Shown here: piece after piece, positions 31,320 to 46,921 of the stretch
Layout: each line of letters begins with the position of its first letter
Numbering within the stretch: the stretch's first letter is position 1
Assembly: GCA_038231455.1 (NCBI GenBank)
Contig: JBBRLI010000004.1
Location: 64,001 to 128,000, forward strand
Reading direction: 5' to 3'
DNA: 64,000 nt
Source: Vulcanimicrobiales bacterium
GTDB lineage: Bacteria; Vulcanimicrobiota; Vulcanimicrobiia; Vulcanimicrobiales; Vulcanimicrobiaceae
Made by a program: the position numbers and the translations under genes
Notes under the pieces: model-generated
The model's input: only the letters and a program-made list of their open reading frames with translations
What the model was told of the DNA's origin: nothing
Databases searched by the model: none

Positions 31320-31320
31320 A

Positions 31321-32223
31321 CTAGACGTCCTCTAAAGTGTTAGCGCGCGGCTCTTCAACCGCGTTGAAAAAGATTTCTTCAAGATTGAGATTGAGAATCG
31401 CGAGGTTGTTTGGAGCGTGCGCGTTGATGGCGACGGCAATCGCATCATGATCGCTCTGTACGAAGGCGCGCATCGTGTTGCCGCGCCACTCGATGCGCCT
31501 CACGCGCACGTCGGAGGCGAGTCCGTTCAGATCGGGCTTGCGATCGAACGTCGCCTCGATGAGTTTTTCGTTGTCTTTGAGTTCGTCGACGATTCCATCG
31601 ACGATGAGTTTGCCGCGTTTGAGAATTGCAACGCGATCGGCGGCCCGCTCGACTTGGCCGATTTGATGAGACGAGAAAAGAATGGTTGCGCCGTTTGCAG
31701 CGGCTTCGATTAAGAGATCGAGCACCGCACGCTGATTGATCGGATCGAGGCCCGAGGCTGGTTCGTCGAGGATCATGACACTCGGACGGATCGCAAAGGC
31801 GAGTGCTAACGCAAACGCGTTTTTCTGGCCCTTCGAATACTTGCGGACGCGTTTGCGCGCATCGAGGTCGAAGATCGATAGCATCTTCCGGGCTCGGGCG
31901 GTTTCGAACGTCTTATACGCGTGCTTCGCCATCGAGAAATGTTCTTCGCCCGTCATATCGTCGTATAGAGCGCTTCGTTCGGGAATGAACGCGACGCGTT
32001 CGAACATCTCGGGTCGCGGCGGACCCCCAAGGATCGAGAGACGTCCTGCGGTCGGGCGAGCGAGGCCGACGAGGCACTTGATCGTCGAGGTCTTGCCGGC
32101 GCCGTTGGGGCCGAGCAATCCGCAGATCGAGCCTTCGGGCACGTCGAGTGTGAGCTGCGAGACGGCTTCGAAATCGCCGTAGCGTTTGGTGAATCCGTCG
32201 ATTGCGATGGGGCCGGTCATCAT
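31321..32223 (-). CDS. ABC transporter ATP-binding protein (YtrB-like)
   Basis: GPNGAGKT Walker A, YSKGQ signature, LDEPASGLD, SSH. Confidence 0.93.
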   Translation of the reverse strand: MMTGPIAIDGFTKRYGDFEAVSQLTLDVPEGSICGLLGPNGAGKTSTIKCLVGLARPTAGRLSILGGPPRPEMFERVAFIPERSALYDDMTGEEHFSMAKHAYKTFETARARKMLSIFDLDARKRVRKYSKGQKNAFALALAFAIRPSVMILDEPASGLDPINQRAVLDLLIEAAANGATILFSSHQIGQVERAADRVAILKRGKLIVDGIVDELKDNEKLIEATFDRKPDLNGLASDVRVRRIEWRGNTMRAFVQSDHDAIAVAINAHAPNNLAILNLNLEEIFFNAVEEPRANTLEDV

Positions 32224-32624
32224 TCGTTCTCCGTCGGGTACCAGCGTGCGACGAGCGTCGCGATCAGTGCGGTCAATTCTGGTCGCGAGACGCCGATCGA
32301 GCGGGCGTCGCGGATGGCGGCTTCGAGGGCGCCGGCGGCAACGTCGGCGAGTGCGCGGCGCGCCAGCGGTGCTGCACCGTCGCGGTTTTTCACAAATGAT
32401 CCGCGGCCGGGGCTGGTCTCGATCACTTCTTCGCGTTCGAGATCGCGGTAAGCACGGGCCACCGTGTTGGGATTGACGGTGAGTTCGAGGGCGAGCGCCT
32501 TCACCGTGGGGAGACGTTCGCCAGGGGCGAGCGCACCGACGGCGACCGATCGCTTCACTTGATCGATCAGCTGGACGTAGATCGGGACGCCGCTGCGCGT
32601 GTCGATATTCAAGTTCACGGGCAC
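32220..32624 (-). CDS. GntR-family regulator, YtrA subfamily
   Basis: PIYVQL, LPTVKALA...VNPNTVARAYRDLE...GRGSFV; short C-terminus; GTG start at 32624 or 32618. Confidence 0.92.
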   Translation of the reverse strand: MPVNLNIDTRSGVPIYVQLIDQVKRSVAVGALAPGERLPTVKALALELTVNPNTVARAYRDLEREEVIETSPGRGSFVKNRDGAAPLARRALADVAAGALEAAIRDARSIGVSRPELTALIATLVARWYPTENE

Positions 32625-32628
32625 CAAA

Positions 32629-32748
32629 TTAGAACTTCGGGCCCCAGCCGCCAAACATGCGGACATCGGCCGTCGGACGGGCGAGCGAACGACGTTCGTT
32701 CGTCTCGGGGATGGCGATCGGGCGGGGGCGATTCACGCGGACAGTCAT
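32629..32748 (-). CDS. Unannotated 39-aa peptide, FGGWGP family copy 1 (MTVRVNRPRPIAIPETNERRSLARPTADVRMFGGWGPKF)
   Basis: Translated by hand; lies between the promoter/operator and the GntR gene; similar to peptide at 45088-45195. Confidence 0.75.
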   Translation of the reverse strand: MTVRVNRPRPIAIPETNERRSLARPTADVRMFGGWGPKF

Positions 32749-32765
32749 TGCTGTGTTCTTTCTGC

Positions 32766-32815
32766 GCTATTGAACTAGCACATTAGTACAATAGCACATT
32801 AGAACGGCGTGTCAA
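32766..32815 (-). promoter_or_regulatory. sigma70 promoter with overlapping YtrA-type operator
   Basis: Minus strand TTGACA-N16-TATTGT with TG extension; palindrome GCTATTGAACTA-gcacat-TAGTACAATAGC (32766-32795); TAGCACATTAG occurs twice. Confidence 0.8.
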
Positions 32816-32850
32816 GGGGGTCGCCCAAGCTTGTTCAAATTCTCCCGGCC

Positions 32851-33345
32851 ATGCGACCGAAGCGTATCGAGCCGGGTCCGGGGCAAGAATCGGTCTGGGA
32901 TTACCCGCGCCCGCCGGCGATCGAGGCCAATCGCAAGTCGCTCCGGGTCGAGTTCGCCGGGAAGATCGTCGCGCAAAGCAGCGGCGGCTACCGGGTGCTC
33001 GAAACGAGCCACCCGCCCGTGTTCTATCTTCCGCCCGAAGACTGCGATTTAAGCGTGCTCCGGCGCGGCGCGGCGACGACGTTTTGCGAATTCAAAGGCG
33101 TCGCGAACTATTACGATCTCGTGGTAGGCGATCGGATCTCGCGCGATGCAGGCTGGTTTTACGCGCATCCCTCCGCGCGGTTCGCTGCGCTCGTCAATCA
33201 CGTCGCGTTCTATGCCACGCGCGTCGATGCGTGCTATGTCTACGACGAACGGATCGAGCCACAACCGGGTGATTTCTACGGCGGCTGGATCACGAGGAAC
33301 GTGGTCGGCCCGTTCAAAGGCGCGAGTGGAACGTGGGGATGGTAG
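32851..33345 (+). CDS. DUF427 domain protein
   Basis: QESVWDYPRPP, LETSHPP.FY, CEFKG, FYGGWIT motifs. Confidence 0.88.
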   Translation: MRPKRIEPGPGQESVWDYPRPPAIEANRKSLRVEFAGKIVAQSSGGYRVLETSHPPVFYLPPEDCDLSVLRRGAATTFCEFKGVANYYDLVVGDRISRDAGWFYAHPSARFAALVNHVAFYATRVDACYVYDERIEPQPGDFYGGWITRNVVGPFKGASGTWGW

Positions 33346-34790
33346 ACGGCGCGCCGCAGGGACTCTTTCGCGGTCCGCTATCGCTGCGGATCAAAGGTGA
33401 ATGGACGCTGCTTGCGATTTGCATCATCCTCGTGGCCGCCGTCGTTCCGGGCGCTGCGCGGCTGATCGGCAACTCATTTGCGATCCAGGAATTCGCGCTG
33501 ATCATCATCGGCGGCATGCTGCTCATCTCACTTGGGCGCGGTCGATTACTCGGCTCGAGTATCCGCGTACAAGAAAAGCAGTTCGGCGACATCGCCGAAC
33601 TCGTTGCCGACTGCGCGCGAATCCTGGGTGTTTCGATGCCGCAGGTCTTCGTGCGCGACGACCCCTTCGTGCCGCTGGTCGCGATCGGCATCGGCGAACC
33701 GTACGCGCTGATCATCTCCGCCCAGTGGGTCGGTCATCTCAAACCGCAGGAGCTGCGCTTTCTCGTTGGGCGCGAACTCGCGCACATCGCAGCGGGGCAT
33801 ACACGACTCACCTCGCTGCTCAGCACGAACGGTCGCGAAAATCCGCTGGTCGCGTTCGCCTTCGGTGCATGGCTCCGGCGCGTCGAATACACCGCCGATC
33901 GGGTCGGCTTACTGTGCTGCAATACGCTCGAAGAAGCATACAACGCGATCGCCGTCTCGGCGTTCCACTCACTTGGCAGAACGATCGATCACCGCGCCTT
34001 CGCCGAACAGCGCGCATCGATCCAAAGCGATCAGACACTGCGGATGGGCGAATGGCTGAGCGCAACTCCGTATGCAACGAATCGTATGCACGCGCTCGCC
34101 GCGTTTACCGCACATCCGCTCTATGCCGCATGGCGTCCGCGATTTGAAAGCGGTCATCCCGTCGTCGCTCGGTCTAGCGCCGATCGCAGCGGCGGTGTGC
34201 CGATTAAAGCGTTCGCGAGTTTTCCGCGTCGTCTTTCGGCACTCGTGATCGATAGCACGCTCGTCTCGATCATTTTTTCAAAAGCGGCTGCGATCAAAGC
34301 CGATTTCAGCGAATCCGCCGTTACCGTCGCACCGAACGCGGCGAAAGCCGTAAAAAAACTCAGCGAGCTCGCTCAAAAAACGACCGACCCGGATGCAAAA
34401 GCCGGCATTGAAGCCGCACAGCATGCGATCTCGCAACTACCCGTAAGCGCGACACCCTTTTTGACACTTCCGCACGTGACGATCAGTCCGGGGTATTTCT
34501 TTCTCTTCGCGTATGTCATCATTTTTGTTGCCGTCGCGGGTCAAACATTCGGAATGATGGTGATGGACTTACGCGTCCTCACCGAGCGTTTTTCTCGCGT
34601 CGGCCTTGGTCGCGCAATCGCGCGCTACGTCATCGGCGTTCTAACGTTCGCGTTTGTCTACGGATTCGTGCGCGTGTTCTCGCGCATACAGCCGTTCGAG
34701 AAAATCAGCGGCACCCGACTCGTGCAAGGAAACGCGGTCCCGCAATCGACGCTACCGTCCCTTAGCGAACCCCAACCGCAACGCGCGTAG
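33339..34790 (+). CDS. M48-peptidase-like domain fused to RDD domain
   Basis: N-terminal TMs; GRELAHIAAGH and EYTADR (M48-like); FPRRLSALVID...GQTFG (RDD-like). Confidence 0.75.
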   Translation: MVDGAPQGLFRGPLSLRIKGEWTLLAICIILVAAVVPGAARLIGNSFAIQEFALIIIGGMLLISLGRGRLLGSSIRVQEKQFGDIAELVADCARILGVSMPQVFVRDDPFVPLVAIGIGEPYALIISAQWVGHLKPQELRFLVGRELAHIAAGHTRLTSLLSTNGRENPLVAFAFGAWLRRVEYTADRVGLLCCNTLEEAYNAIAVSAFHSLGRTIDHRAFAEQRASIQSDQTLRMGEWLSATPYATNRMHALAAFTAHPLYAAWRPRFESGHPVVARSSADRSGGVPIKAFASFPRRLSALVIDSTLVSIIFSKAAAIKADFSESAVTVAPNAAKAVKKLSELAQKTTDPDAKAGIEAAQHAISQLPVSATPFLTLPHVTISPGYFFLFAYVIIFVAVAGQTFGMMVMDLRVLTERFSRVGLGRAIARYVIGVLTFAFVYGFVRVFSRIQPFEKISGTRLVQGNAVPQSTLPSLSEPQPQRA

Positions 34791-35682
34791 AAGAAGCGGG
34801 GGTTGTCGCCGCAACGACGGCGTGCGAACCGTGGCGACGCGCCCAGACCTTCGTAAGCTCCGCACCTAAGAGCAACACGAGCGCGGAGTAATAAGCCCAG
34901 AGTAAGATGACGAGGACCGAACCCGCGGCGCCATAGTTCGAAGTGACGCCACTCTTCCCAAGATAGAGTGAGAGCGCAATCTGACCGATCTCGAAGAGCA
35001 CGGCGGTCGCGATGCCACCGAACCACACGTCGCGCCACGCGATCTTCGCGTTGGGCAAGTAGCGAAGGATCATCGCGAAGAGCAGGCTCAGAACGACGAC
35101 GGAGAGGAGGGTGTTCGCAAACCCAAGGATGAGCCCCATGCCGGGGAACGGCAAGAGCGCGCTCAGATGCGTCGAGACGAAAGCGAGTGCGGCGCTTGCA
35201 AGGAAGCTCGCAAGCATCACAACGCCGATCCCGATTACCATCAGGATCGCCATCAATTTATTTTTGATGATTTCGCCGATGTTACCGTGCGGCGGCTCGA
35301 CATTCCACACCGTATTGAGCGCACTCTCGAGCGCGGCAAAAACCCCGGATGCGCCCAGGAGTACCAGCACCCAACCGACGATGCTCGCAAGCAATCCGTG
35401 ATGCTGTTTATAGCTGCCGACGATCATCCCGTTGACCGTCGCACCTGCGTCGCGGCCCATTGCCGCGGAGATCTGGGCGACGATCTTCTCTTGCACGATA
35501 TGATGGCCGTGGCCACCGTTTGACAGGCCGAAATACCAGCCGGCAATCGCAATCGCGATGATAATCAGCGGTGCGATCGCGAAAATCGCCGAGTACGCAA
35601 TCGCAGCTGCCAGCCGCGGCGACTTATCGGTCGTAAATTCGGTCCACGTTTCCTTGCCAAGAGCAAGCATATCGACGCTCAT
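34762..35682 (-). CDS. YihY/virulence factor BrkB family membrane protein
   Basis: LAAAIAYSAIFAIAP, YGAAGS...LLWAYYSA...LGAE. Confidence 0.9.
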   Translation of the reverse strand: MSVDMLALGKETWTEFTTDKSPRLAAAIAYSAIFAIAPLIIIAIAIAGWYFGLSNGGHGHHIVQEKIVAQISAAMGRDAGATVNGMIVGSYKQHHGLLASIVGWVLVLLGASGVFAALESALNTVWNVEPPHGNIGEIIKNKLMAILMVIGIGVVMLASFLASAALAFVSTHLSALLPFPGMGLILGFANTLLSVVVLSLLFAMILRYLPNAKIAWRDVWFGGIATAVLFEIGQIALSLYLGKSGVTSNYGAAGSVLVILLWAYYSALVLLLGAELTKVWARRHGSHAVVAATTPASSTRVAVGVR

Positions 35683-35785
35683 GCTGCGTTGTTCCCCATT
35701 TCGAGCCGTCTCCACACGCGGCAAGATCGGGTTTGCAGGCATGATGCTCGCGGTACAAGATAACCTCACCCTCGTGGAGCACTCC

Positions 35786-36340
35786 ATGACCGATCACAGC
35801 GCCTCTCTCACGGTCGCCGCACCCATTCACCAGGTGTACGGGCTCTTCGGACGTTTCGGTGACTATCCGAAATTCTTGACGTACGTCAAAGACGTGCAGT
35901 TCGTCAACGAGCAGACAACGCGCTGGGTTGCTGATATCGCCGGACGCCACGAGTGGACGGCCGCAAACGACAACTGGATCCCTGACCGTCAGATCGGATG
36001 GCAATCGACCGATGGTTTTCGGAACTCCGGTCGCATCGAACTTCTCGCACTCCGCGCGGACCAGACGCAGGTGAAGGTCACGATTTCCTACGATCCGCCC
36101 GCCGGGCCGATCGGCATGGCGGGCGAGGTGCTTGGCATCGGCGCGACGTTCGAGTCTGCGCTGCAGCGCGATCTCGACGCTTTTGCAGCGAAGGTTGCGG
36201 CCGCGCCAAGTGGCGGGCTCGATCCGAACTCCTCGGCGTACGTATTAAGCAACGATCGTACCACGACCGAGCCACCGGGTCTTACCGAGGTCGTACCGGT
36301 TGTGCCGGGCACATCGCGCGCATCGCGCGACGCTTTGTAA
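35786..36340 (+). CDS. SRPBCC/START-like (polyketide cyclase family) protein
   Basis: GGAG SD; YPKF, TTRW, IGWQS, YDPPAG. Confidence 0.82.
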   Translation: MTDHSASLTVAAPIHQVYGLFGRFGDYPKFLTYVKDVQFVNEQTTRWVADIAGRHEWTAANDNWIPDRQIGWQSTDGFRNSGRIELLALRADQTQVKVTISYDPPAGPIGMAGEVLGIGATFESALQRDLDAFAAKVAAAPSGGLDPNSSAYVLSNDRTTTEPPGLTEVVPVVPGTSRASRDAL

Positions 36341-36391
36341 CCAAAAAGAAACCAGGGGCGGGCCTCTCACCGTAGGGAAGAAGGCAGGCCA

Positions 36392-38746
36392 ATGCTTGAT
36401 ACCGCGGATTTGGCGACGGTGGTTTTTGCGGAGCATCCGCGACCGATGTGGGTGTACGACCCGCAGACGCTTCGCTTTGTTACGGTTAACGAAGCCGCGA
36501 TTCAAGCATATGGATACAGCGCTGAGGAATTCGCGCGCATGACGATCGCCGATCTTTCGGCGACACCCGATTCGCGCTCAAACGGTCCGTGGAAACACCG
36601 CATTGCCTCGGGCGAGACGATCGATGTCGAGATCTCAAGTCGTACCGTTCAGCTCGACGGTCGCACGCTGCGGCTGGTCGAGGCGCGCGACATCACGCGC
36701 CGCGTCCGCCACGAACGCGAGCTGCTCGAAAGCCAATCGCGCGCGCAAATCGTCCTCTCCCAAATCCCCGCGCTGATCTGGACGACCGACCTCGACCTGA
36801 GGTACACCTCGATCGCCGGCAACGTCTTAAATGAAATCAATCCCGATTTCGAACGCTCGACGCTCGGACGCGCACTACTCGACGTCTTCAATAGCGCAAC
36901 GGAGCGCGAAGCCATGGTTTTGGCCGCGCACGAGCGGGCGCGAGCCGGCGAACGCGTTACCTTCGAGGGTCAGTGGTTCAAGCGTTATTTCGAGGCCGCC
37001 GTCGAGCCATTGCGCGATCGCGAGGGATCGATCGTCGGAACGATCGGGATGGCGATGGACGTCACCTCGCGTCAACGTGTCGTGCGAGAGCTCGAAGAGC
37101 GGCGCGGCGAACTGAGTAAAGCGCAAGAGATCGCGCATCTCGGGAGTTACAGCTCCGCGATCGACAACGACCAAGACACGTATTGGTCACCCGAACTGTA
37201 CCGCATTCTGGGCGTCAAGCCAAACGACAGCAACGCTTCGCGCACGCTCTTCCGATACGATCATCCCGAAGATGTCATCCTGGTTCGGGAAGCGTACGAG
37301 CGCGCGATTGCAAAACTCACGACCTTCGAACTCGAACATCGCATCATCCGGCGCGACGGAGAGATCCGGTTCGTCCGCGAGAAGGGCGAGTTTGTCGTCG
37401 TCGGCGGGAAACCCGTGCGCATCGTCGGCACGTTGCTCGATATCACCGATCAAAAACTCGCGGAAGAACGGCTCGCGCACCTCGCGCAATACGATGCGCT
37501 CACCGACCTGCCGAATCGCTCGTTGCTCGGTGACCGACTCGTTCAAGCGCTCTCGCGCGCCAATCGCCGCAACAAACTCGTCGCGGTGCTCTTCCTCGAC
37601 GTCGACCGCTTCAAATCGATCAACGATTCACTGGGCCACCTCGTCGGCGACGAGTTGCTCGTCCAACTCGCCGAACGGCTCGCCGATCTGATGCGCGACG
37701 AAGATACGATCGCGCGACCGGGCGGCGATGAATTCGTCGTGGTTTTGAGCGATATTGCCGACGAGCAAACGGCGCGGGACCTTGCAACGCGGATCCAACG
37801 CTCGCTCGCGCGTCCGATGGAACTGAAATCCGGGACGCAGTTCGTTTCGTGCAGTATTGGGATCGCGCTCTACCCGAACGACGGCCGCACGCCCGACGAG
37901 CTTTTGCGCGCAGCGGATGCAGCGATGTACAAAGCCAAACGGCGCGGCGGCGGTAACTATCAGTTCTACACCTCCGCTCTGCACGAGTCGGCGGTGCGTG
38001 CGCTCGAACTCGAAAACGCCCTACGCTCGGCGATCGATCGCGGCGACCTGCGCGTTCACTACCAGCCGATCTACCGGATCGACGATCCGAGCGCACCATG
38101 CAATTTCGAAGCGCTCGTGCGCTGGAACCGTGATGGGACGACGATCAGCGCCGCCGAATTCATCCCGCTTGCAGAAGAAACGGGCCTCGTGCATCCGATC
38201 GGTGAGTTTGTTCTCGACACGGTCTGCACGCAAATCGCCGCTTGGACGCGTGCGGGTCGCGCCTTCGATCGCGTGGCCGTCAATCTTTCGGCGCGACAGC
38301 TTCGCGATCGCGAGTTCGGCGAGCGTATCGAGCGCCTACTTCAAGAACGCGCGATCGATCCGCGCCGCCTTGAGTTCGAACTCACGGAGTCGACGCTCCT
38401 GGAGGGCGGCGCAACCGTGCTCTTCAACGTCGACCGACTGCGGTCGCTCGGCATTACGTTTGCAATCGATGACTTCGGCACCGGCTACTCGTCGCTTGCG
38501 TACCTGAAGTGGTTACCGATCGACAAGATCAAAATCGATCGTTCGTTCGTTACCGACCTGACGAGCGACCGTGCGAACCAGGCGATCGTCGAGGCGATCA
38601 TCCAAGTCGGGCACAAACTCGGCAAGACGATCGTAGCGGAAGGCATCGAATCCGCCGCCGAACTCGGAGCACTCGCCGCAATGGCATGCGACCACGCCCA
38701 AGGGTATCACCTCGGGCGTCCGGTCAGCGCTCCGTTCGGCGACTAA
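36392..38746 (+). CDS. PAS(x3)-GGDEF-EAL c-di-GMP signalling protein
   Basis: PAS repeats; YDALTDLPNR, GGDEF; EAL, ELTES, DDFGTGYSS, KID, EGIE, QGY all intact. Confidence 0.93.
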   Translation: MLDTADLATVVFAEHPRPMWVYDPQTLRFVTVNEAAIQAYGYSAEEFARMTIADLSATPDSRSNGPWKHRIASGETIDVEISSRTVQLDGRTLRLVEARDITRRVRHERELLESQSRAQIVLSQIPALIWTTDLDLRYTSIAGNVLNEINPDFERSTLGRALLDVFNSATEREAMVLAAHERARAGERVTFEGQWFKRYFEAAVEPLRDREGSIVGTIGMAMDVTSRQRVVRELEERRGELSKAQEIAHLGSYSSAIDNDQDTYWSPELYRILGVKPNDSNASRTLFRYDHPEDVILVREAYERAIAKLTTFELEHRIIRRDGEIRFVREKGEFVVVGGKPVRIVGTLLDITDQKLAEERLAHLAQYDALTDLPNRSLLGDRLVQALSRANRRNKLVAVLFLDVDRFKSINDSLGHLVGDELLVQLAERLADLMRDEDTIARPGGDEFVVVLSDIADEQTARDLATRIQRSLARPMELKSGTQFVSCSIGIALYPNDGRTPDELLRAADAAMYKAKRRGGGNYQFYTSALHESAVRALELENALRSAIDRGDLRVHYQPIYRIDDPSAPCNFEALVRWNRDGTTISAAEFIPLAEETGLVHPIGEFVLDTVCTQIAAWTRAGRAFDRVAVNLSARQLRDREFGERIERLLQERAIDPRRLEFELTESTLLEGGATVLFNVDRLRSLGITFAIDDFGTGYSSLAYLKWLPIDKIKIDRSFVTDLTSDRANQAIVEAIIQVGHKLGKTIVAEGIESAAELGALAAMACDHAQGYHLGRPVSAPFGD

Positions 38747-38895
38747 GCCTTCTTCGGGGCGATCTTCCCGTCGTCGTCTTCGGGATCGTTCTCATCGGTG
38801 TCGAGCACTTGGGTATGCGCCACGTCCTCACGGTCGCCGGGCGTTGGGTAGCGCTCTTCGGTAAGGTCGTCTTGGTAGAGATCTTTGCGTTCCAT
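38743..38895 (-). CDS. Small acidic hypothetical protein (50 aa, MERKDLYQDDLTEER...)
   Basis: Fills gap between EAL gene and oxidoreductase; TACGAT 6 nt upstream of ATG. Confidence 0.55.
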   Translation of the reverse strand: MERKDLYQDDLTEERYPTPGDREDVAHTQVLDTDENDPEDDDGKIAPKKA

Positions 38896-38967
38896 GATCG
38901 CATCGTACCCCGCTCCGCATCGCGCAAAGCAGCAACTCAACCGATCTTGTGCGTTGTCCTCGCATTC

Positions 38968-39933
38968 GTGAAAGCGATACGCGTCGAACGTACGGGCGGA
39001 CCCGACGTTCTCAACCTTACCGACATCGAGAAGCCAACGCCAAAAGCCGGCGAGGCGCTCATCAAGATGACCGCAATCGGTGTGAACTTCATCGATATCT
39101 ACATCCGCACCGGGTTGTATCCCGCACCGCTTCCGTATACGCCCGGCGGTGAAGCCGTTGGCGTGATCGAGTCGGTCGGCGAAAATGAGTATGGCCTTGC
39201 GATCGGCCACCGTGTCGCCTATATGGGGTCGGGTAGCGGCAGCTACGCAGAATACAACTGTGTGGCTCTGGACAAGCTCGTTCCCGTGCCGGACGGCGTC
39301 TCCGATCAAGTCGCCTGCGCCGCGATGCTCCAAGGCGTTACCGCTCAGTATCTCTCACACTCGACGTATCCGATCGAACGCGGCGACACGGTGGTCGTGC
39401 ATGCCGCCGCTGGCGGCGTCGGCAACCTGCTCGTCCAGTTCGCAAAAGCCCGCGGCGCGACCGTCGTCGCAACCGCCTCAACGCCGGAAAAACGTTCGCT
39501 TGCCGTTGCCGCCGGTGCGGACGCCGCGACCGATTACGACGGCTTCGTTGAGAAAGTCAAAGAAATTACCGGCGGTGAAGGCGCCGCGTGCGTGTACGAT
39601 TCCGTCGGCAAAACGACGTTCGATCACAGCATCAAAGCCCTGCGTCCGCGCGGGTTCATGGTGCTCTACGGCGCGGCCAGCGGCCCCGTCCCGGCAATCG
39701 AACCGCAGATGCTCGCCGGCGCGGGCTCGATCTATCTCACGCGCCCGACGGCGGTGCACTTTACGCGCACGCGCGCCGAATTGCTGCAACGCACACACGA
39801 GATCTTCGACCATATCGAAAAGAAAAGCATCAACGTGCGCATCGGCGCAACCTATCCGCTCGCGGATGCCGCCCGCGCGCACACCGACCTCAATGCGCGC
39901 GCGACAACCGGCAAGCTGATCTTACTCCCTTAA
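38968..39933 (+). CDS. qor: NADPH:quinone oxidoreductase (zeta-crystallin type)
   Basis: GVNFID, HAAAGGVG, VYDSVGK, TTGKLIL. Confidence 0.9.
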   Translation: MKAIRVERTGGPDVLNLTDIEKPTPKAGEALIKMTAIGVNFIDIYIRTGLYPAPLPYTPGGEAVGVIESVGENEYGLAIGHRVAYMGSGSGSYAEYNCVALDKLVPVPDGVSDQVACAAMLQGVTAQYLSHSTYPIERGDTVVVHAAAGGVGNLLVQFAKARGATVVATASTPEKRSLAVAAGADAATDYDGFVEKVKEITGGEGAACVYDSVGKTTFDHSIKALRPRGFMVLYGAASGPVPAIEPQMLAGAGSIYLTRPTAVHFTRTRAELLQRTHEIFDHIEKKSINVRIGATYPLADAARAHTDLNARATTGKLILLP

Positions 39934-41384
39934 GGTGATTTGAGGTTCGCCGCGCCAAGGTCGAGCGCGGCGAACGGAATCACTTCGACGTCGCTGTACA
40001 CGGCACGAATGCCGGGCGCGAATTTCGCTGCATCGCCGACGAGCACCACAAAGGGCTTGTCGGCGATATATTTTTTCGAGAACGCGGCAATCGCCGCGGC
40101 GTCGATTGCATTCACGTGCGGGATGAACGTGCCGATATCGGCCAGCGGCACGCCGTTGAGCGCAAGGTCGCCGAACGTTCCGGCGATGCCGTCGATCGTC
40201 TCGATGCCGCGATAGAAGTCACCGGTGACCGTTGCCTTGCGCGGAGCGAGTTCCTCAGCCGGAACCGGCGTATCGGCAAGCGATGCGAGCGTATCGAGCA
40301 CGACCTTCGTGCCTTCGACCACTTTGGTGTGGTCGACGAGCGTTGCGGCCGTAAAGACGCCGGAATCTTTGCGCGCACCAAGACTCGCGCCCGCGCCGTA
40401 CGAGAGTCCGCGTTTGACGCGCACTTCCTGGTTGAGGCGACCGGAGAATCCGGAGAGCACCGCAGTCGAGACGACGCCCGCGTAGTAATTCGGATCGAGA
40501 CGCGCAACCGATGCGCGCCCGGCGACAATCGCCGTGCGACCGGCATCGGGTTTATCGATGATGATGACGCGCGAGCGCGCGGGCACGGGGGTCGAGACGG
40601 GCGCAGCGACGAGTGCCGTCGCCGGTTTCGTCCAGCCACCGAGCACGCGCGTGACGAGCGCGATCGCCGCATCCGGTGCAATGTCGCCGCCGATAACGAG
40701 TAAGGCGTTATCCGGACGATACGCGCTTGCGTGAAACGCGACGACGTCATCGCGCGTGAGGGCTTTGAGCGAGCTTGCCGTTCCGCTCAGCGGGTGCGCG
40801 TACGGTGATGCGCCGTACGCGACGCGGCCGGCAACGAGTCGCGCAAGCGAACTCGGCGAACTATAACCGAGCTGCAGATCGCTAATCGATTTCGTCCGCA
40901 CGCGCTCGACTTCGGCCGCCGCGAACGCCGGATGCAGCACGACATCGGCAAAGAGATCGAACGCCGCCGGAAACGTCGGTGTCGTCGCGCTCACGCTCAC
41001 AAGCGATGCATCGTAACCCGCACCCGCATTGAGCCGCGCGCCAAGCGCATCGACGGCTTGCGAGATGGCAAGCGCGCCGCGCGTTTTCGTGCCCGAGGTC
41101 AGGAGCGTCGAGGTCATGTTCGCAAGGCCGGCGTGCGCTTCGTCTTCCGACGAACCACCGCTACGCACGATGAGCTGTGCGGCGATGAGCGGCACGCTCT
41201 GGGCTTTTGGCTGCGATTTCACTTGGAAAGCGATAACGCGTAGGCCGTTGGGTAGCGTCGCTTCTTGCGCGGTCGGCAGCACGGCGGTGCGGACGGGTCC
41301 GGGCAGCGGCGGGGTTTGGACCTGTTGGGCGCTCACGGCCATCGGTAATCCTACGATCAAGAGAAGGGCGGCGATCGACTTCAC
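39930..41384 (-). CDS. M16 peptidase family, non-catalytic subunit with signal peptide
   Basis: LPNGLRV, EVRVKRGLSYG; no HxxEH. Confidence 0.85.
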   Translation of the reverse strand: MKSIAALLLIVGLPMAVSAQQVQTPPLPGPVRTAVLPTAQEATLPNGLRVIAFQVKSQPKAQSVPLIAAQLIVRSGGSSEDEAHAGLANMTSTLLTSGTKTRGALAISQAVDALGARLNAGAGYDASLVSVSATTPTFPAAFDLFADVVLHPAFAAAEVERVRTKSISDLQLGYSSPSSLARLVAGRVAYGASPYAHPLSGTASSLKALTRDDVVAFHASAYRPDNALLVIGGDIAPDAAIALVTRVLGGWTKPATALVAAPVSTPVPARSRVIIIDKPDAGRTAIVAGRASVARLDPNYYAGVVSTAVLSGFSGRLNQEVRVKRGLSYGAGASLGARKDSGVFTAATLVDHTKVVEGTKVVLDTLASLADTPVPAEELAPRKATVTGDFYRGIETIDGIAGTFGDLALNGVPLADIGTFIPHVNAIDAAAIAAFSKKYIADKPFVVLVGDAAKFAPGIRAVYSDVEVIPFAALDLGAANLKSP

Positions 41385-42718
41385 TTCGGCAGATACTCCA
41401 CCACGGTGCGGTTGGTCGGCACGAAGTATTTCTTCGCGACGCGCGTGATGTCGGCGGGCGTGACCGCTTGCAGCTTCGCAAGATCGGAATTCACCAGCGC
41501 CGGGTCGCCGCGATAGACGACCGCACGCACGAGTGCAAGCGCAATGCCTTGATACGTCGCACGCGAACGCACGAGCGAACTTGCAATCTGCGTTTTGGCT
41601 TTGTCGAGTTCGGCTGCATCGACCGGCGTCGTCTGCAGATGTGCGATCTCCACGTCGAGCGAGGCGTGCGCGTCGCTGAGGGCTTTGCCTTTATTGAGGA
41701 TCGTGCGGAACGTGAAGAGTCCGGGCTGCTGGCGCGCATCGAAACCCGCGTACGCACCCGAGGCGAGCTGCTGATCGTACACCAGCGCCCGATAGAGGCG
41801 CGAACTCTTGCCTGCGCCGAGGATCGTCTCGATCACATCGAGGGCTTCTGCATCGGGGGCGCTTGCCGCCGGAACGTGATACGCATATTCGAGCGCGGGC
41901 AGCGGCACGTTGTTGCCGTGATAGGTGAAGCGCCGCTCTTCGGTTTGCTTGGGTTCCACCACGCTCACGCGCGGCACCGTGCCCGCGGGCTTCACGATCG
42001 GCCCGAAGTATTTGTCGATCCACGCGTTCGTCTGCGCCGGATCGAAATCGCCGACCACGACGAGCACGGCGTTGTCGGGACGATAGTACGTCGTATGGAA
42101 GGCGACGACATCATCGAGCGTGGCGGCGTGCAAGTTGTCGGGATCGCCGATCACGCCGCGCCGATAGGGATGCGTGGTGTACGCTTCGCGATCGACGAGT
42201 TCTCCGAGCATGCCGTACGGTTCGGCAAGCACGCTCTGGCCGTACTCACCGATCACGACCTCGCGCTCGGTCAGGAAGTTCGCTTGCGTTACGTTGAGTG
42301 AGGCAAGACGATCGGCTTCGGCCCACAGCAGCGTCTCGAGATAATTTGCCGGCACCACTTCGTAGTAATTCGTGATGTCTTCGGCGGTGAAGGCGTTGTT
42401 GTAACCGCCCACGTCTTCGGTCAGCCGGTCCATCGTCTCGGACTTGGTGTTGGCCGTGCCTTTGAACATCAGATGTTCGAAGAGATGGGCAAAGCCCGAG
42501 CGGCCCGGCGGATCGTCTTTGCCGCCGACGCGGTAGCCGACGTTGATCGCAACCGACGGCACGCGATGATCCTCGACCAGGAGCACGCGCAGGCCGTTGG
42601 GGAGGGTCCGGTCGGTAAAGCTAAGGGGGGCGAGAACGATCGCCGCCGCCGTTGGTAGGGTCGTCAGCGACATCCATCCGATTCCGAGAATGAGGGCAAA
42701 GAGCCGAGAAAGGCGCAT
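41381..42718 (-). CDS. M16 zinc peptidase, catalytic subunit with signal peptide
   Basis: AHLFEHLMFKG, NAFT, YYRPDNA. Confidence 0.92.
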   Translation of the reverse strand: MRLSRLFALILGIGWMSLTTLPTAAAIVLAPLSFTDRTLPNGLRVLLVEDHRVPSVAINVGYRVGGKDDPPGRSGFAHLFEHLMFKGTANTKSETMDRLTEDVGGYNNAFTAEDITNYYEVVPANYLETLLWAEADRLASLNVTQANFLTEREVVIGEYGQSVLAEPYGMLGELVDREAYTTHPYRRGVIGDPDNLHAATLDDVVAFHTTYYRPDNAVLVVVGDFDPAQTNAWIDKYFGPIVKPAGTVPRVSVVEPKQTEERRFTYHGNNVPLPALEYAYHVPAASAPDAEALDVIETILGAGKSSRLYRALVYDQQLASGAYAGFDARQQPGLFTFRTILNKGKALSDAHASLDVEIAHLQTTPVDAAELDKAKTQIASSLVRSRATYQGIALALVRAVVYRGDPALVNSDLAKLQAVTPADITRVAKKYFVPTNRTVVEYLPK

Positions 42719-42763
42719 CGGCCGACGATTCCCCCGGGACCTCCGGTGTCCTCGGTCCATCGC

Positions 42764-42792
42764 TTGACATCGAACATACGTTCGATTATGGT
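42764..42792 (+). promoter_or_regulatory. SOS promoter of imuA with LexA box in the spacer
   Basis: TTGACA-tcgaacatacgttcgat-TATGGT; palindrome ATCGAAC-ATAC-GTTCGAT 42769-42786. Confidence 0.9.
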
Positions 42793-42801
42793 GGGTGTCC
42801 C

Positions 42802-43575
42802 ATGGCCGTCAATCCGGCGTTCGCCGCCCTGCGCGAAGCCTTCGACACCCGTCATCGCGAGACGAGTGCGGCCGCCTTTGTCCTGGGCGAAGATGCCATC
42901 GTGAAGACCGGATTTGCGGATTTGGACCGGGTGCTGGGCGGCGGATTTCCACGTGGGGTCATCTCCACGCTCGAAGGGTCGCCGAGCGGCGGCCGCACGG
43001 CGATCGCCGCTCGTCTGCTCGCGACGGCGACCACCCGCAGCCTGGGCGCGATCATCGGCGATGAACTCTATCCGCCCTCGCTTGCGGCCGCCGGGGTCAA
43101 TCTCGAGCGCCTGATGATCGTGCCGGTGAGCGAGCCGATCCAGATCGCCCGCGCTGCGGATATCGTGGTGCGTTCGGGTGCGTTCACGGTCGTCATCATC
43201 CCGACGCTCCCCAGCGGCCGCGGCACAGGCGCCGCCACCTGGACGCGCCTGGCCAGTCTCGCTCACCGCAGCAATACGCTGCTCGTGGCGCTTGGGGTTG
43301 AAGCCTCAAGCGAACTGCGCTACTTCGCCTCGGTGCGGTTGGAACTGGCGATCGAGCGCGTACGCTGGAACGGCCCCTCAGGTCCCTATGGGGAGCTCGC
43401 CGGTTACGACATCCGCGCGCTCGTCAAAAAGCACAAGCGCGCAGCACCCGGCGCAAACGCGCTCGTCTCATGCGGGACTTTCGAGGACCGCCCGATCTTC
43501 ACCGAAACGCGCGAACGCGCGATCGCCGAAGACCACCAGCCGCACTACGCGCGCCCGCGCATTCGCTCCGCGTAG
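42802..43575 (+). CDS. imuA: RecA-like mutagenesis accessory protein ImuA
   Basis: TGFADLDRVLGGGFPRG, degenerate Walker A GSPSGGRT, YPPSLAAAGVNLERL; SOS box upstream. Confidence 0.82.
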   Translation: MAVNPAFAALREAFDTRHRETSAAAFVLGEDAIVKTGFADLDRVLGGGFPRGVISTLEGSPSGGRTAIAARLLATATTRSLGAIIGDELYPPSLAAAGVNLERLMIVPVSEPIQIARAADIVVRSGAFTVVIIPTLPSGRGTGAATWTRLASLAHRSNTLLVALGVEASSELRYFASVRLELAIERVRWNGPSGPYGELAGYDIRALVKKHKRAAPGANALVSCGTFEDRPIFTETRERAIAEDHQPHYARPRIRSA

Positions 43576-43577
43576 CT

Positions 43578-43832
43578 TTAGGGCGCGAGAATCTCCTCGA
43601 GCGTTGCACGGCGGTCGACGACAACGGTCGAGGCCGGTCGATCGACCCAAGCGCGCGTGACCGTCACCGCGCGCTTGGGACACACGTCGAGACAATCGCA
43701 CGCAACGACGCGGACGTCTTTACGCCCGTCTTTCTTGAGCGCGGCCTTCAAGTCGCGACGCAATCGCTTGCCGCCATCGCACGATTCACAAACGAAGAGC
43801 AGATCGCGATTTTTTACGGATTGCACGGACAT
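43578..43832 (-). CDS. Small Cys-rich protein, thioredoxin-like [2Fe-2S] ferredoxin-like
   Basis: FVCESC...CDCLDVCP pattern. Confidence 0.55.
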   Translation of the reverse strand: MSVQSVKNRDLLFVCESCDGGKRLRRDLKAALKKDGRKDVRVVACDCLDVCPKRAVTVTRAWVDRPASTVVVDRRATLEEILAP

Positions 43833-43899
43833 CTGGCATCCGTACCATCGCATCAGCATCCGCAAACAAAAAATAGCCGCGAGCGGCTTGGAAACCGAT

Positions 43900-44121
43900 C
43901 TACGAGGTTACGGTAATCGTAACGAGTTCGTGGATCGAAGGTTTAGGAACCGGCAAGCCCTCAGCACGCAATGTATCGAGGTAATCGGTAATTGCACCCG
44001 GAGCGTCGTCTAACAATGCTTCACGAGTATCGCCAATCAAAAGAAGACCGGGCAAATCAGGTGCGAGTGCAGCCCAGCCATCACCACGTTCATTCTTCTC
44101 GATGAGAATCGTATACGTCAT
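43900..44121 (-). CDS. hicB: HicB-family antitoxin (short form, 73 aa)
   Basis: YTILIE...PDLPG...GDTRE...YL...G.PVP; ATGA overlap with hicA. Confidence 0.88.
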   Translation of the reverse strand: MTYTILIEKNERGDGWAALAPDLPGLLLIGDTREALLDDAPGAITDYLDTLRAEGLPVPKPSIHELVTITVTS

Positions 44122-44321
44122 CGCGGTCTCCATTTTCCCTCGATTTGTTTCAAGATTACTCTCCGTATTCCCCGCGGTAGATCGCGGTTTCCATGAACCG
44201 GAATTGAAAGCAGATACGGATACTCAGGGTGCTTAAAAATCCAATGACTCGCTTTCGATCCAATTCGCAAGAATTGCCAACCGCAACTATCGGCATAAGC
44301 GATAAGAGCACGAGCATTCAT
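44118..44321 (-). CDS. hicA: HicA-family mRNA interferase toxin (67 aa)
   Basis: GW..LR...SH..FKHP, IPVHGNRDLPRG...ILKQ. Confidence 0.88.
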   Translation of the reverse strand: MNARALIAYADSCGWQFLRIGSKASHWIFKHPEYPYLLSIPVHGNRDLPRGIRRVILKQIEGKWRPR

Positions 44322-44386
44322 TGTTGCAACGTCGTTCTGAAAAGCACGAACGAACCGTAGCTTTGCCTTGTTACCTCGCCATTTCC

Positions 44387-44420
44387 AAAAGAAAAACGCG
44401 CCGTCCCCAAGGGCGGCGCG
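44387..44420 (-). terminator. Intrinsic terminator downstream of the secreted-protein gene
   Basis: CGCGCCGTCC-ccaa-GGGCGGCGCG preceded on plus strand by AAAAGAAAAA (U-tract on minus). Confidence 0.75.
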
Positions 44421-44441
44421 CTTGCTTATGACTGCTGGATT

Positions 44442-44759
44442 TTAGAGGCCGGGCTGGTCGGCGCGGTTGTGTTTGGTGAAGTAGACGCCGTTTGAGGTGC
44501 GGTTGAGCTCGCGATTGAGTTTTGCGCGCTGCGCCGGTGAGAGATTCTTATTGTCGATCGAATGGTCGCGCTGACGGCGGATGCTGTTGAGACGGCGTTC
44601 GTCGACGGTGTATTCGTGGCGCGTGAGCTGACCCGACTGCACGCCTTGATTGATGCGGTCTTGTTGGTTCTCGATGCGGTTATGGAGTTCGCCGGCGTTC
44701 GCGGCGAGCGGCAGTGCGATGAGGGCGGCGACGAGGGCGGTTGAAAAAAGTTTGATCAT
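44442..44759 (-). CDS. Secreted helical protein (105 aa)
   Basis: Signal peptide ending ANA; NQQDRINQGVQSGQLT..E motif; GGAG SD. Confidence 0.75.
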   Translation of the reverse strand: MIKLFSTALVAALIALPLAANAGELHNRIENQQDRINQGVQSGQLTRHEYTVDERRLNSIRRQRDHSIDNKNLSPAQRAKLNRELNRTSNGVYFTKHNRADQPGL

Positions 44760-45023
44760 TGCAGAAACTCCGTGAGTGCTTGCCCAGTACATGTGAGCGA
44801 GTGATGGATTGAACCCGCTGTACGCGGATTCAATCCGCTAGATGACTCGACAACGACCGCGATCTGCATCGCATTACCGAAGCCGGACACATCTCACCCA
44901 AGCCTAAGCACGCTCTTGCCGCGCGTTCATTTTCCATGTCCGAACCGAGCAAACGGCAAGCTTTCTTAGCTCACGGAACACCAACCGACTTCTCACCCGT
45001 CTCTAAAGCGAAACATTTCCAAC

Positions 45024-45047
45024 TGTGCTACTATATCTTTAGTTGCA
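45024..45047 (+). promoter_or_regulatory. Extended -10 promoter with ACTA-N6-TAGT palindrome
   Basis: TGTGC-TACTAT; TGCTACTA-tatctt-TAGTTGCA, same core and spacing as site at 32770-32791. Confidence 0.55.
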
Positions 45048-45087
45048 AGCCCGATCGGCCCGATTGAGGCCACTGGAAAGGACAACC

Positions 45088-45195
45088 ATGAGACTCGCAA
45101 CCACCCGCCCCGAACCGCCGCGCGAGAATCGCGTACTTACGAACCGGCCCGTAGCGAACGTGCCCTTTGGGGGCTGGGGTCCGCGTCTGGGGTAG
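45088..45195 (+). CDS. Unannotated 35-aa peptide, FGGWGP family copy 2 (MRLATTRPEPPRENRVLTNRPVANVPFGGWGPRLG)
   Basis: GAAAGGAC SD-like before ATG; similar to 32629-32748; overlaps the 3' tail of the convergent MFS ORF by 59 nt. Confidence 0.7.
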   Translation: MRLATTRPEPPRENRVLTNRPVANVPFGGWGPRLG

Positions 45196-46330
45196 CCGCA
45201 AAGCGTGCGAGCACCAGTGCCGCGCACGCGATGAAACCGAACGCCGTCGCACAGACGCCCGTCCAGTTCCACCACTGCCAGGCAACGGCGCCCACGAACG
45301 ACCCCACCGCCCCACCCGAAAACGTCACGAACATATACGTTGTATTGAGTCGGCTCCGAGCCGAATCGTCGAGCGCGAAAATGCGCGACTGATTCGAGAT
45401 CTGATTCGACTGCATCCCGATCGCAAACACGATCGCGCCGATGATGAAGAACGCAACGACGTTCGCGCCGCTCCAGTAGATCGTCCAGGCGATCCCGAGC
45501 ATGACCAGTGCGAACGCACCCGTGACCACATTCCCGTACTTATCGGCAAACGTGCCGACGTTGACGGCAATGAATGCACCGATCATTGCGGTGAGTCCGA
45601 GGGATCCGACGAACGCCGGGCCGAGGCCCATCGATGCGAGATGAAACGGAACCGTCGTCCAAAACGCACTGAACGTGGCAAATGCGCAGAAGCCAAGCGC
45701 GCAGGAAACGCGGAGTGCGCGATGTTCGCGTAAGAGCGGCGCAAGCGATGCCAGCAATTGCCCGTACTTGAGTTTATTGTGACCGCGGTGAACCGGAAGC
45801 GCGCGCCACATGGCAATCGCAGCGAGGGCACTCGCACCGCTGCCGAACCAAAACACCGGACGCCAACCAAAATGTCCGCCGATGAATCCACCGACTACGC
45901 GCGCGAAGATAATGCCCATGATCACGCCCGTCTGCACCTGCGCGATCACGCGACCGCGTTTGTCGTCGCTTGCAAGATCGGCCGCAAACGGAATGAGGAT
46001 TTGCGCGGTAATCGAGGTGATACCGGCGATAAATCCCGCTATTGCAAGCACGAAAAGATTCGGTGCAAGCGCGCAGCCCGCAAGCGCGATGACGGAGACG
46101 GACGCAAGCGCAACGCAGAGCGTGCGCCGCTCGGCAATATCGCCGAACGGAACGAAAAACAAAATCCCCAGCGCATAACCCACTTGAATGGCGACGGCGA
46201 CGAGACCGACGTCTTTGGGTGATGCGCCGAAGGTGTGCGCGATTTCCGCGAGGACCGGCTGCGCGTAATAGATGTTCGCAACCGCGACCCCGGATGCAAT
46301 CGCCTTGACGAGGACGGTTTGTGGGGTCAT
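45137..46330 (-). CDS. MFS transporter
   Basis: VANIYYAQP, GYALG..F.VPFGD..ERR, RSRLNT.YM; about 12 TM. Confidence 0.9.
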   Translation of the reverse strand: MTPQTVLVKAIASGVAVANIYYAQPVLAEIAHTFGASPKDVGLVAVAIQVGYALGILFFVPFGDIAERRTLCVALASVSVIALAGCALAPNLFVLAIAGFIAGITSITAQILIPFAADLASDDKRGRVIAQVQTGVIMGIIFARVVGGFIGGHFGWRPVFWFGSGASALAAIAMWRALPVHRGHNKLKYGQLLASLAPLLREHRALRVSCALGFCAFATFSAFWTTVPFHLASMGLGPAFVGSLGLTAMIGAFIAVNVGTFADKYGNVVTGAFALVMLGIAWTIYWSGANVVAFFIIGAIVFAIGMQSNQISNQSRIFALDDSARSRLNTTYMFVTFSGGAVGSFVGAVAWQWWNWTGVCATAFGFIACAALVLARFAATPDADPSPQRARSLRAGS

Positions 46331-46354
46331 TGGCTGCGGTTTTAAACGCGCGCT

Positions 46355-46798
46355 TTAGAACATCCGGTTATAGACGAAAAAGACCTCATCGCGGACGTAG
46401 CCCGCGCGCTCGTACAGCCGCTGCGCGACGTGATTGTTGACCGCGGTACTCAAGGTCAGTCCGACCGCATCGTCCTCGCGTGCGAACCGCTCCGCTGCCG
46501 CCATCAGCGCCGCGCCGACGCCTTCGGTGCGCACGTAGGGATCGACGAAGAGATCGTTGAGAATCCATATCCGCTGCACCTGCGCGCTATCGAACGACGG
46601 ATAGAGCTGCACGAAGCCGATCGCCGCGTTATTGCCGTCCCGGGCAAGAAAAATAACCGACTCGTCACGAGCCAGCCGTTCGGTGATGAAGTTGTGCGAG
46701 GCTTGCAGATTGCTCGCAGCCTTATAGAAGACGCGATACGCATCAAAGAGCGGGGCGATCGCATCGACCTCATGCTGGGCGGCGCGGGCGATCGTCAT
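46355..46798 (-). CDS. GNAT-family acetyltransferase
   Basis: LFDAYRVFY, GFVQLYP, WILNDLFV, N..AQRLYE..GY. Confidence 0.9.
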   Translation of the reverse strand: MTIARAAQHEVDAIAPLFDAYRVFYKAASNLQASHNFITERLARDESVIFLARDGNNAAIGFVQLYPSFDSAQVQRIWILNDLFVDPYVRTEGVGAALMAAAERFAREDDAVGLTLSTAVNNHVAQRLYERAGYVRDEVFFVYNRMF

Positions 46799-46883
46799 CG
46801 GGGCAAGCGGCAAAAAACCATACCGTGTGATTCAACGCACATAGCGCGAGGCTTGTTCGCATCGCGGGACTTCCGGCCCCACA

Positions 46884-46912: not shown

Positions 46913-46921
46913 TCGTCTCCC

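Follow-up and report, generated by a model that had tools for sequence, protein, structure and literature searches.

Two very short open reading frames (ORFs), one on each strand of a 64,000-nucleotide stretch of a Vulcanimicrobiales genome (GCA_038231455.1, contig JBBRLI010000004.1, positions 64,001 to 128,000; called the window below), end in nearly the same residues, and one of them directly precedes the genes for a GntR-type repressor and an ABC exporter. This raises the question whether the two are genes at all and, if so, whether their peptides work where they are made or as separate molecules acting on the repressor and the exporter. We found that both ORFs are members of a conserved micro-protein family that no described family matches, and that copy 1 is of the leader type and forms the first cistron of the repressor-exporter operon. 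The two genes are:

32629..32748, minus strand: copy 1, leader-type peptide gene, 39 residues (coordinates including the stop codon), MTVRVNRPRPIAIPETNERRSLARPTADVRMFGGWGPKF followed by the stop
45088..45195, plus strand: copy 2, stand-alone peptide gene, 35 residues (coordinates including the stop codon), MRLATTRPEPPRENRVLTNRPVANVPFGGWGPRLG followed by the stop

Extent and sequence of the peptide family

Both ORFs translate exactly as written in the original prediction, which was made from the letters of the window alone, and the motif codons quoted there (TTT GGC GGC TGG GGC CCG versus TTT GGG GGC TGG GGT CCG) were correct. A degenerate DNA pattern for FGGWGP occurred at 2 places in the window versus 0 of 100 dinucleotide-preserving shuffles. 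Among 61 related genomes, the window genome included, it was found at 17 places in 15 genomes, and a reversed control pattern at 2. At all 17 places the motif stands in frame at the C-terminal end of a short ORF, with a clear Shine-Dalgarno sequence before the chosen start in 12. Three unpublished genomes (G059, G020 and G022) account for 3 of these 17 places and for 2 of the 18 peptide-selected loci discussed below, and the phylum tallies of the profile and GntR searches take in up to 15 unpublished genomes; none enters the 40-place operon sample, the alignments A5 and A6 or the codon statistics.

A profile search among 5.8 billion proteins led to 137 matches of 35-87 residues at E<=0.01, which come from Candidatus Eremiobacteraeota, Baltobacteraceae, Eremiobacteraceae and related metagenome-assembled genomes; all those that are named are called 'hypothetical protein', and none carries a Pfam domain. 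Searching 1.84 billion representatives without a word index gave 40 clusters, all short except for one weak match of 773 residues. In a six-frame profile search of the phylum 216 of 401 genomes were matched; by family (numbered f1, f2 and so on here), matches were found in 187/296 genomes of f1, 4/5 of f2 and 23/30 of f3, together 214/331, and in 1/68 of all others. As far as these 5.8 billion proteins, 1.84 billion representatives and 401 genomes reach, the family is restricted to one class of Eremiobacterota. The profile search of the genome and its relatives that had been proposed with the original prediction therefore brought up both a class-wide family and a third copy (copy 3, on contig C11), and the idea of a family of two members had to be given up.

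The peptides are 33-55 residues long, hydrophilic and rich in Pro and Arg, and combine a variable N-terminal part with a near-invariant C-terminal motif, [LIMF]-F-x-G-W-G-[PVI]-[KR]-hydrophobic. Database members read F-x-G-W-G-P, x being mostly G, also S, A, T, N, D or E; their tails after the motif comprise either 2-4 or 11-13 residues, the long type having WN, FN or LN at its end. Leaders (n=48) have 33-52 residues (median 38-39) with 12.3% Pro and 11% Arg; between F and the invariant G, 9 of the 48 have a further G and the others Q, L, S, R, P or A, and 15 have V or I in place of the motif P. The conserved FGGWGP tail that had been predicted consequently holds as the core F-x-G-W-G-[P/V/I], but not in its second position, which varies, nor in the Pro of those 15 leaders. 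Cys is present in just 5 of 152 family members. AlphaFold2 modelling of a long-tail member with a 104-row alignment gave a mean predicted local distance difference test (pLDDT) value of 61.9, one 4-residue helix and almost no secondary structure; the peptides are predicted to be disordered. None of the 48 leaders and none of the 104 other members reached a Kyte-Doolittle mean of at least 1.6 in a 15-residue window, the maximum in the family being 1.40.

That the family was unannotated agrees with our searches: neither Pfam nor NCBIfam returned a family for the two window peptides or for any of the 104 members of alignment A4, the ESM Atlas gave no usable match with copy 3 as query, and when 8000 candidates of 98-2000 residues were scored for longer or fused forms, none reached E<=0.01, the last being weak evidence. 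A full-text literature search on the motif, on peptides, GntR regulators and ABC transporters of Eremiobacterota, and on small ORFs, small proteins or ribosomally synthesized and post-translationally modified peptides (RiPPs) of this phylum, led to nothing on the family.

Selection on the peptide

Codon patterns indicate that selection acts on the encoded peptide, as had been suspected from the synonymous differences between the two window motifs. Across 48 leader ORFs, all from published genomes, the entropy at the two invariant Gly codons is 0 in the first and second positions and about 1.2 bits in the third, and for the motif Phe both codons are in use. Comparison of copy 1 with its orthologue in a same-genus genome revealed 13 synonymous and 3 non-synonymous changes, a ratio of non-synonymous to synonymous change (pN/pS) of 0.08. 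The corresponding values are 0.14 for copy 3 and 0.51 overall for copy 2, the last 24 codons of which contain 0 non-synonymous and 3 synonymous changes; pooled over 9 pairs, pN/pS is 0.36. Conservation is not confined to the DNA or RNA level, as frame and motif are kept in relatives and Rfam gave 0 matches at E<=1 on positions 28000-48000.

The leader-repressor-exporter operon

Copy 1, the C-terminus of which translates as MFGGWGPKF followed by TAA, is succeeded by the gene for the GntR regulator and then, without gaps, by those for the ABC ATPase and two paralogous ABC-2-like permeases. The elements of the operon besides copy 1 are:

32767..32815, minus strand: promoter-like element read from the sequence, TTGACA at 32810-32815, a 16-nt spacer and TATTGT at 32788-32793
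32767-32800, minus strand: operator-like repeated words TGTGCTA/GTACTA, overlapping the promoter-like element
32223..32627, minus strand: YtrA/PmtR-like GntR-family regulator (Pfam PF00392, E 8e-15)
31321..32223, minus strand: ABC transporter ATPase, 300 residues (Pfam ABC_tran, E 1e-22), the start overlapping the GntR stop
30576-31319, minus strand: permease 1, ABC-2-like ORF of 247 residues, paralogous to and contiguous with permease 2
29823-30575, minus strand: permease 2, ABC-2-like, 250 residues (Pfam ABC2_membrane_2, weak, E 4.5e-4, below the cut-off)

The regulator has 135 residues if it starts at TTG 32625-32627, its first possible start, in which case 1 nt separates it from the stop of copy 1; it has no Shine-Dalgarno core of its own.

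GntR orthologues (E<=1e-25) were detected in 283/296 genomes of f1, 1/5 of f2, 29/30 of f3 and 0/68 of the other families, a taxonomic range that matches that of the peptides. When 40 places were drawn from this GntR match list regardless of peptides, genomes lacking a peptide-profile match included, a leader was present upstream of 39 of the 40 orthologues, ending 0-22 nt (in one case 75 nt) before the GntR start; 23 of these leaders end in G-W-G-P and 16 in G-W-G-V or G-W-G-I, in each case followed by two residues and the stop. Conversely, in loci selected by the peptide, all 18 orthologous GntR genes have a small ORF ending GWGP-x-x-stop just upstream. The place of copy 1 as first gene of the GntR/ABC operon, already noticed in the window, is shared by nearly all of the orthologous operons sampled. 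In each of the 48 leaders (alignment A5) exactly two residues stand between [PVI] and the stop, which is TAA in 35, TAG in 8 and TGA in 5, compared with TAA 138, TAG 162 and TGA 165 in 465 neighbouring ORFs of at least 150 residues from these loci, which come from related genomes and have 64% G+C.

A Shine-Dalgarno core, at a median spacing of about 6 nt, precedes 45 of the 48 leaders versus 11 of the 48 GntR starts, a few of the latter being assigned only approximately. Since the cores are distributed in this way, the leader appears to be the ribosome entry point of the operon, with GntR translated through coupling. The invariant TGGGG of the motif was considered as a Shine-Dalgarno sequence for GntR and rejected, as at least 17 nt separate it from the start and it is kept by stand-alone copies that have no downstream gene. 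The sole leaderless case among the 40, L091 (G168:C1:1069114-1069900), has a GAGGAG of its own before GntR; promoter and operator are retained there, and a stand-alone peptide match is found about 32 kb away in the same genome. At another locus, L083 (G302:C14:497152-497938), tandem leader ORFs stand before one GntR gene and both end in LFGGWGVRF-stop, the upstream one being truncated at the edge of the locus sequence.

Most of the 40 leaders, L083 being one exception, are preceded by TTGACA-N16/17-TATT(G/A)T together with GTACTAGTGTACTAGTAC-like repeats, and this promoter- and operator-like architecture is almost invariant between the window and a same-genus genome. A promoter overlapped by repeats fits autoregulation by the GntR protein, which would bind to these repeats. 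In related loci, too, both permease genes come after that of the ATPase. In f3 genomes the leader-GntR-ABC unit lies amid other, mostly housekeeping genes (mutL, hfq, dapF), and it is the only unit kept across families among the annotated neighbours.

The NCBIfam models nearest to the GntR regulator are Rv1152 (E 6e-21) and PmtR (E 2e-18), both below cut-offs; the best matches of the ATPase, to DrrA, GldA, lantibiotic-protection and PmtA-type exporters, are all below cut-offs as well. As the scores against the PmtR model (66.6 bits, cut-off 200) and the PmtA model (123.4 bits, cut-off 350) are that low, the window proteins are not orthologues of PmtR and PmtA. The nearest solved relatives of the regulator are YtrA-type proteins of 125-134 residues. 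A complex prediction for two GntR copies and the leader peptide, with 48-row alignments each, gave a score of 0.00, the mark being 0.32, which speaks neither for nor against binding.

Around the operon, a DUF427 gene and an overlapping gene for an M48 peptidase-RDD protein (both by Pfam) run divergently from the leader promoter at 32809-34790 on the plus strand, and beyond the permeases, at 28453-29826 on the plus strand, a 457-residue membrane protein with a GGEEF motif can be read from the translation.

Stand-alone members

Copies 2 and 3 are stand-alone paralogues with expression signals of their own, and the following features belong to them:

G000:C11:75577-75744 (= L033:7983-8150), plus strand: copy 3, long-tail member of 55 residues ending RRLN, found by six-frame profile search
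45137..46330, minus strand: MFS transporter gene convergent to copy 2 (Pfam MFS_1, E 3e-38)

Copy 2 has an AAGGA Shine-Dalgarno core 7 nt 5' of its start, with ggaaaggacaacc abutting the ATG, and no same-strand gene downstream. It overlaps the MFS gene by 59 nt (45137-45195), which hold the last 19 MFS codons and the stop; in the same-genus comparison this overlap contains 2 substitutions, which are silent for the peptide and alter 2 residues of the MFS tail. The MFS gene is a neighbour that need not belong to the system. Its tail within the overlap is hydrophilic (…AATPDADPSPQRARSLRAGS). About 110 nt just 5' of copy 2 (about 44936-45048) are missing in the same-genus genome, and this extra stretch carries a TGTGCTAC word resembling the copy-1 operator repeats as well as an AT-rich promoter-like segment.

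After copy 3 come a clear intrinsic terminator and, about 100 nt on, a gene for an MsbA-like ABC exporter of 606 residues. This terminator-exporter layout is attenuator-like; upstream of copy 3 lies a 340-residue ORF that, judged by eye from the translation, reads like a DnaJ/CbpA-type chaperone. Long-tail members such as copy 3 continue for a further 11-13 conserved residues after the motif, ending in WN. At L010-L014, between the stop of long-tail copies and a convergent aldo-keto reductase gene, there is a conserved 'tttaaagtttcat' word together with hairpins, one of which has CCUCCAC in its loop.

In family f1 many stand-alone copies come immediately 3' of the gene for a DUF5916 protein with an N-terminal hydrophobic, signal-like segment, and at 16 loci with this order the peptide is followed by convergent genes. 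The DUF5916 gene is divergent from that of a regulator with an N-terminal OmpR-type winged helix-turn-helix (wHTH), one membrane helix and, beyond it, a tetratricopeptide repeat (TPR) domain that would be periplasmic; the leader-GntR-ABC operon often follows this wHTH-TPR regulator. Recurrent flanks in f1 are an aldo-keto reductase, a diacylglycerol kinase, a CMD-family protein and the M48 peptidase-RDD protein. The cluster recurs at L021, L024, L026, L036, L041-L044, L048, L053, L054, L057, L059, L063 and others. It is absent from the f3 loci examined, and in the window genome the best relatives of the wHTH-TPR regulator and of the DUF5916 protein lie on other contigs. As only the peptide-GntR-ABC unit is kept across families, we treated the rest as f1 synteny, which may simply be inherited. 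A quorum-sensing arrangement of a ToxR-like TPR regulator, the DUF5916 protein and the M48-RDD peptidase was considered and discarded, as this neighbourhood is missing in f3 and dispersed in the window genome.

At 10 loci of genus g25 copy-2-like peptides lie 30-110 nt 5' of an operon for a MaoC dehydratase, an acyl-CoA dehydrogenase and a CoA-transferase (L051, L052, L055, L060, L061, L064, L065, L071, L073 and L074). These peptides read …RPVRTLARPTGADS.PFGGWGPRVPGL, and some of the spacers hold short hairpins. Upstream of 9 of 26 stand-alone loci the motif TGAAAC-N16/17-CGTA was detected, compared with 0.018 occurrences expected per 420 nt; it lies about 60-110 nt before the peptide start, for example at L021, L027, L028, L036 and L041-L045. 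We take it to resemble a promoter of an extracytoplasmic function (ECF) sigma factor, or else an OmpR-type half-site that possibly serves the wHTH-TPR regulator.

Possible functions of the peptides

The YtrA subfamily of GntR regulators is not known to have an effector- or ligand-binding domain. For PmtR of Staphylococcus aureus it is reported that phenol-soluble modulin (PSM) peptides induce their own ABC exporter by interfering directly with this GntR-type repressor (PMC5080381). The reading that we favour, tentatively and in the knowledge that it may well prove wrong, follows that circuit and takes the Eremiobacterota peptide as a trans-acting inducer and/or cargo of the repressor-exporter module. 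The leader would carry the ribosome-binding site of the operon and feed ribosomes into the repressor gene through translational coupling, and the operon of leader, GntR repressor, ABC ATPase and two ABC-2 permeases would be autoregulated. Peptides released after translation would then act in trans on the products of that operon, with the conserved GWG tail as an epitope for the repressor and/or the exporter; their accumulation would lift repression, and the pump would remove or secrete them. The PSM-PmtR logic fits here because of the YtrA size of the repressor, the lack of export signals, the invariant short epitope and the paralogues with their own controls. Stand-alone paralogues, conserved long tails and one tandem leader duplicate are signs of a trans-acting product.

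Several points weigh against this reading. The peptides are unlike the amphipathic helices of the PSMs (pLDDT 62, Pro 12%) and carry no export signal, and a motif that is invariant across a whole class would be unusual for a secreted signal. A fixed stop with the repressor start within the ribosome footprint is more natural for a stalling leader that acts in cis. In genus g37 of f2, 4 of 5 genomes have no GntR orthologue (best matches 32-41% identity), and 3 of these 4 have profile matches, one of them (G041, 82% complete) a clear stand-alone member; the peptides may accordingly not depend on the operon. In NCBIfam the scores against PmtR and PmtA fall far short of the curated cut-offs, and the present operon has one ATPase and two permeases, unlike PmtABCD, which comprises two ATPases and two permeases.

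The strongest rival, which we consider possible but clearly less probable, is a ribosome-arrest leader acting in cis; like a ligand of the regulator or transporter, it had been named in the original prediction. Here the nascent motif would contact the exit tunnel and the peptidyl-transferase centre and slow termination, the stalled ribosome would cover the repressor start 1-22 nt further on and gate coupling into GntR and the pump, and the trigger might be a small molecule or translation stress. In the GntR-selected sample the leader, where present, was always the first cistron and, apart from the case at 75 nt, within 22 nt of the repressor start, and the uneven distribution of Shine-Dalgarno cores (45/48 versus 11/48) would suit such gating, as would the stop position fixed in all 48 leaders, an N-terminus variable in both sequence and length, and the predicted disorder. 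Conservation is limited to the C-terminal 9 or so residues and a (D/E)RRP.V.LP-like motif 12-18 residues upstream, all within tunnel length. The g25 peptides 30-110 nt before the MaoC operon and copy 3 before its terminator and exporter gene could also work in this manner; the layout of copy 3, we presume, resembles that of the BmrB leader of bmrCD. However, copy 2 and the peptides of the 16 DUF5916 loci face convergent genes and cannot act in cis, long-tail members keep their 11-13 extra conserved residues past the motif, one genome has a tandem duplicated leader, and there is no space for an attenuator between leader and GntR. The stop codons are a further point: TAA is the most efficiently terminated stop, and its use in 35 of 48 leaders versus 138 of 465 neighbouring ORFs does not suggest selection for slow termination.

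Arrest in cis and action in trans might also be combined, although we regard this as rather unlikely: the leader would stall at termination and gate coupling, and the released peptide together with the stand-alone paralogues would act on the repressor in trans. Similarly low is the probability that we assign to an accessory small subunit or protective partner of the transporter, or to another function in trans such as that of a stress-induced binding peptide. The precedent is YtrG of Bacillus subtilis, described as a 45-residue single-pass membrane protein whose 45 codons lie directly ahead of ytrA and the ABC genes and belong functionally to the ytrGABCDEF operon, and to which an accessory or protective role with the transporter was recently assigned (PMC13729164). 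This parallel, already drawn in the original prediction, holds for the position as small first gene of a ytrA-type operon, but not for the protein, as 0 of 152 family members have a membrane-helix-like window and a YtrG-like membrane seat beside the permeases is thereby lacking. The TGAAAC-N16/17-CGTA motif at 9 of 26 stand-alone loci would fit envelope-stress control.

Less probable still is a precursor of a modified or processed secreted peptide, be it a RiPP (as had been proposed), a ComX-like pheromone modified at Trp or a double-glycine bacteriocin, with the variable N-terminus as leader and the GWG tail as core. The layout of a leader plus conserved core, the invariant Trp between Gly residues, several paralogues per genome with one tandem duplication, the adjoining ABC exporter, and the f1 neighbourhood with its M48-RDD peptidase, membrane-anchored TPR regulator and DUF5916 protein would all agree with a precursor. 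However, the reading found no support: no radical SAM maturase, YcaO protein, lanthipeptide synthetase or prenyltransferase, and no other modifying-enzyme family, occurs among the annotated neighbour clusters, which represent a part of the neighbours at 57 loci (L018-L074) and the two window copies, though such an enzyme may be encoded elsewhere. These clusters comprise GntR, ABC, OmpR-type wHTH-TPR, DUF5916, aldo-keto reductase, diacylglycerol kinase, M48-RDD, CMD, MaoC, acyl-CoA dehydrogenase and others, and the sole radical-SAM gene, at L020, belongs to the mutL/hfq/dapF block. The supporting f1 neighbourhood is missing in f3 and dispersed in the window genome, and the peptides have almost no Cys (5/152). 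A double-glycine leader in particular was rejected, as the residue after F is G in just 9 of 48 leaders and neither the ATPase nor the permeases have a peptidase domain. Finally, chance ORFs, or conservation at the DNA or RNA level only, can practically be dismissed: the ORFs are small and 64% G+C makes short open frames common, but third codon positions vary while first and second are invariant, pN/pS is well below 1, Shine-Dalgarno cores stand at the right distance, Rfam gave no match in the region searched, and frame and stop position are kept across three families.

Significance

How YtrA-type regulators sense their signals is poorly understood, and PmtR, reportedly released by peptides, is the one worked example that we found. 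As a peptide gene stands in the repressor's own operon in 39 of 40 orthologues, in at least two families, our results suggest that repressors of this type came under peptide control earlier, and in more lineages, than a purely staphylococcal trait would imply. The present module would be a clean case: 9 invariant residues as epitope, an operator that is conserved, and a repressor of 135 residues. If the leader stalls ribosomes, it would represent a new arrest motif, and if it has the dual role, a cis/trans micro-protein switch and a new class of nascent-peptide sensor, conserved across a class of an almost uncultured phylum. Either way, a class-wide micro-protein family is added that annotation and curated models lack. 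One member of the phylum, Vulcanimicrobium alpinum of the same family, Baltobacteraceae, is in culture (PMC10582173), so that bench tests are possible.

Comparison with known systems

Ribosome-arrest leaders such as TnaC, SecM, SpeFL and the BmrB-type attenuation leaders share with the present leaders the short upstream ORF, the variable N-terminus, the conserved C-terminal segment of Trp, Gly and Pro and the fixed relation to the stop. In contrast to them, leader and GntR have neither an attenuator nor a Rho site between them, and control would have to run through translational coupling alone. To our knowledge no arrest peptide family has stand-alone paralogues with conserved extra tails. Copy 1 resembles ytrG as a small ORF immediately before a ytrA-type repressor gene; unlike YtrG, compared here by its features, the present peptides have no hydrophobic segment and carry the C-terminal GWG motif.

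With the PSM-PmtR-PmtABCD system of S. aureus the module has in common small peptides that lack a signal sequence and a short YtrA-type GntR repressor heading an operon for an ABC-2-type exporter, and the named NCBIfam models nearest to the window regulator and ATPase include PmtR and PmtA. PSMs are amphipathic helices encoded elsewhere in the genome, whereas in the present operon the first cistron is a peptide gene, translationally coupled judging by its signals, and the peptides, for which disorder is predicted, are rich in Pro and Arg. Unlike S. aureus, the host belongs to an uncultured, probably diderm lineage. New here are the sequence family and its architecture; the kind itself, a YtrA-type repressor/ABC operon that begins with a small gene and would form a circuit of peptide, repressor and exporter, is known.

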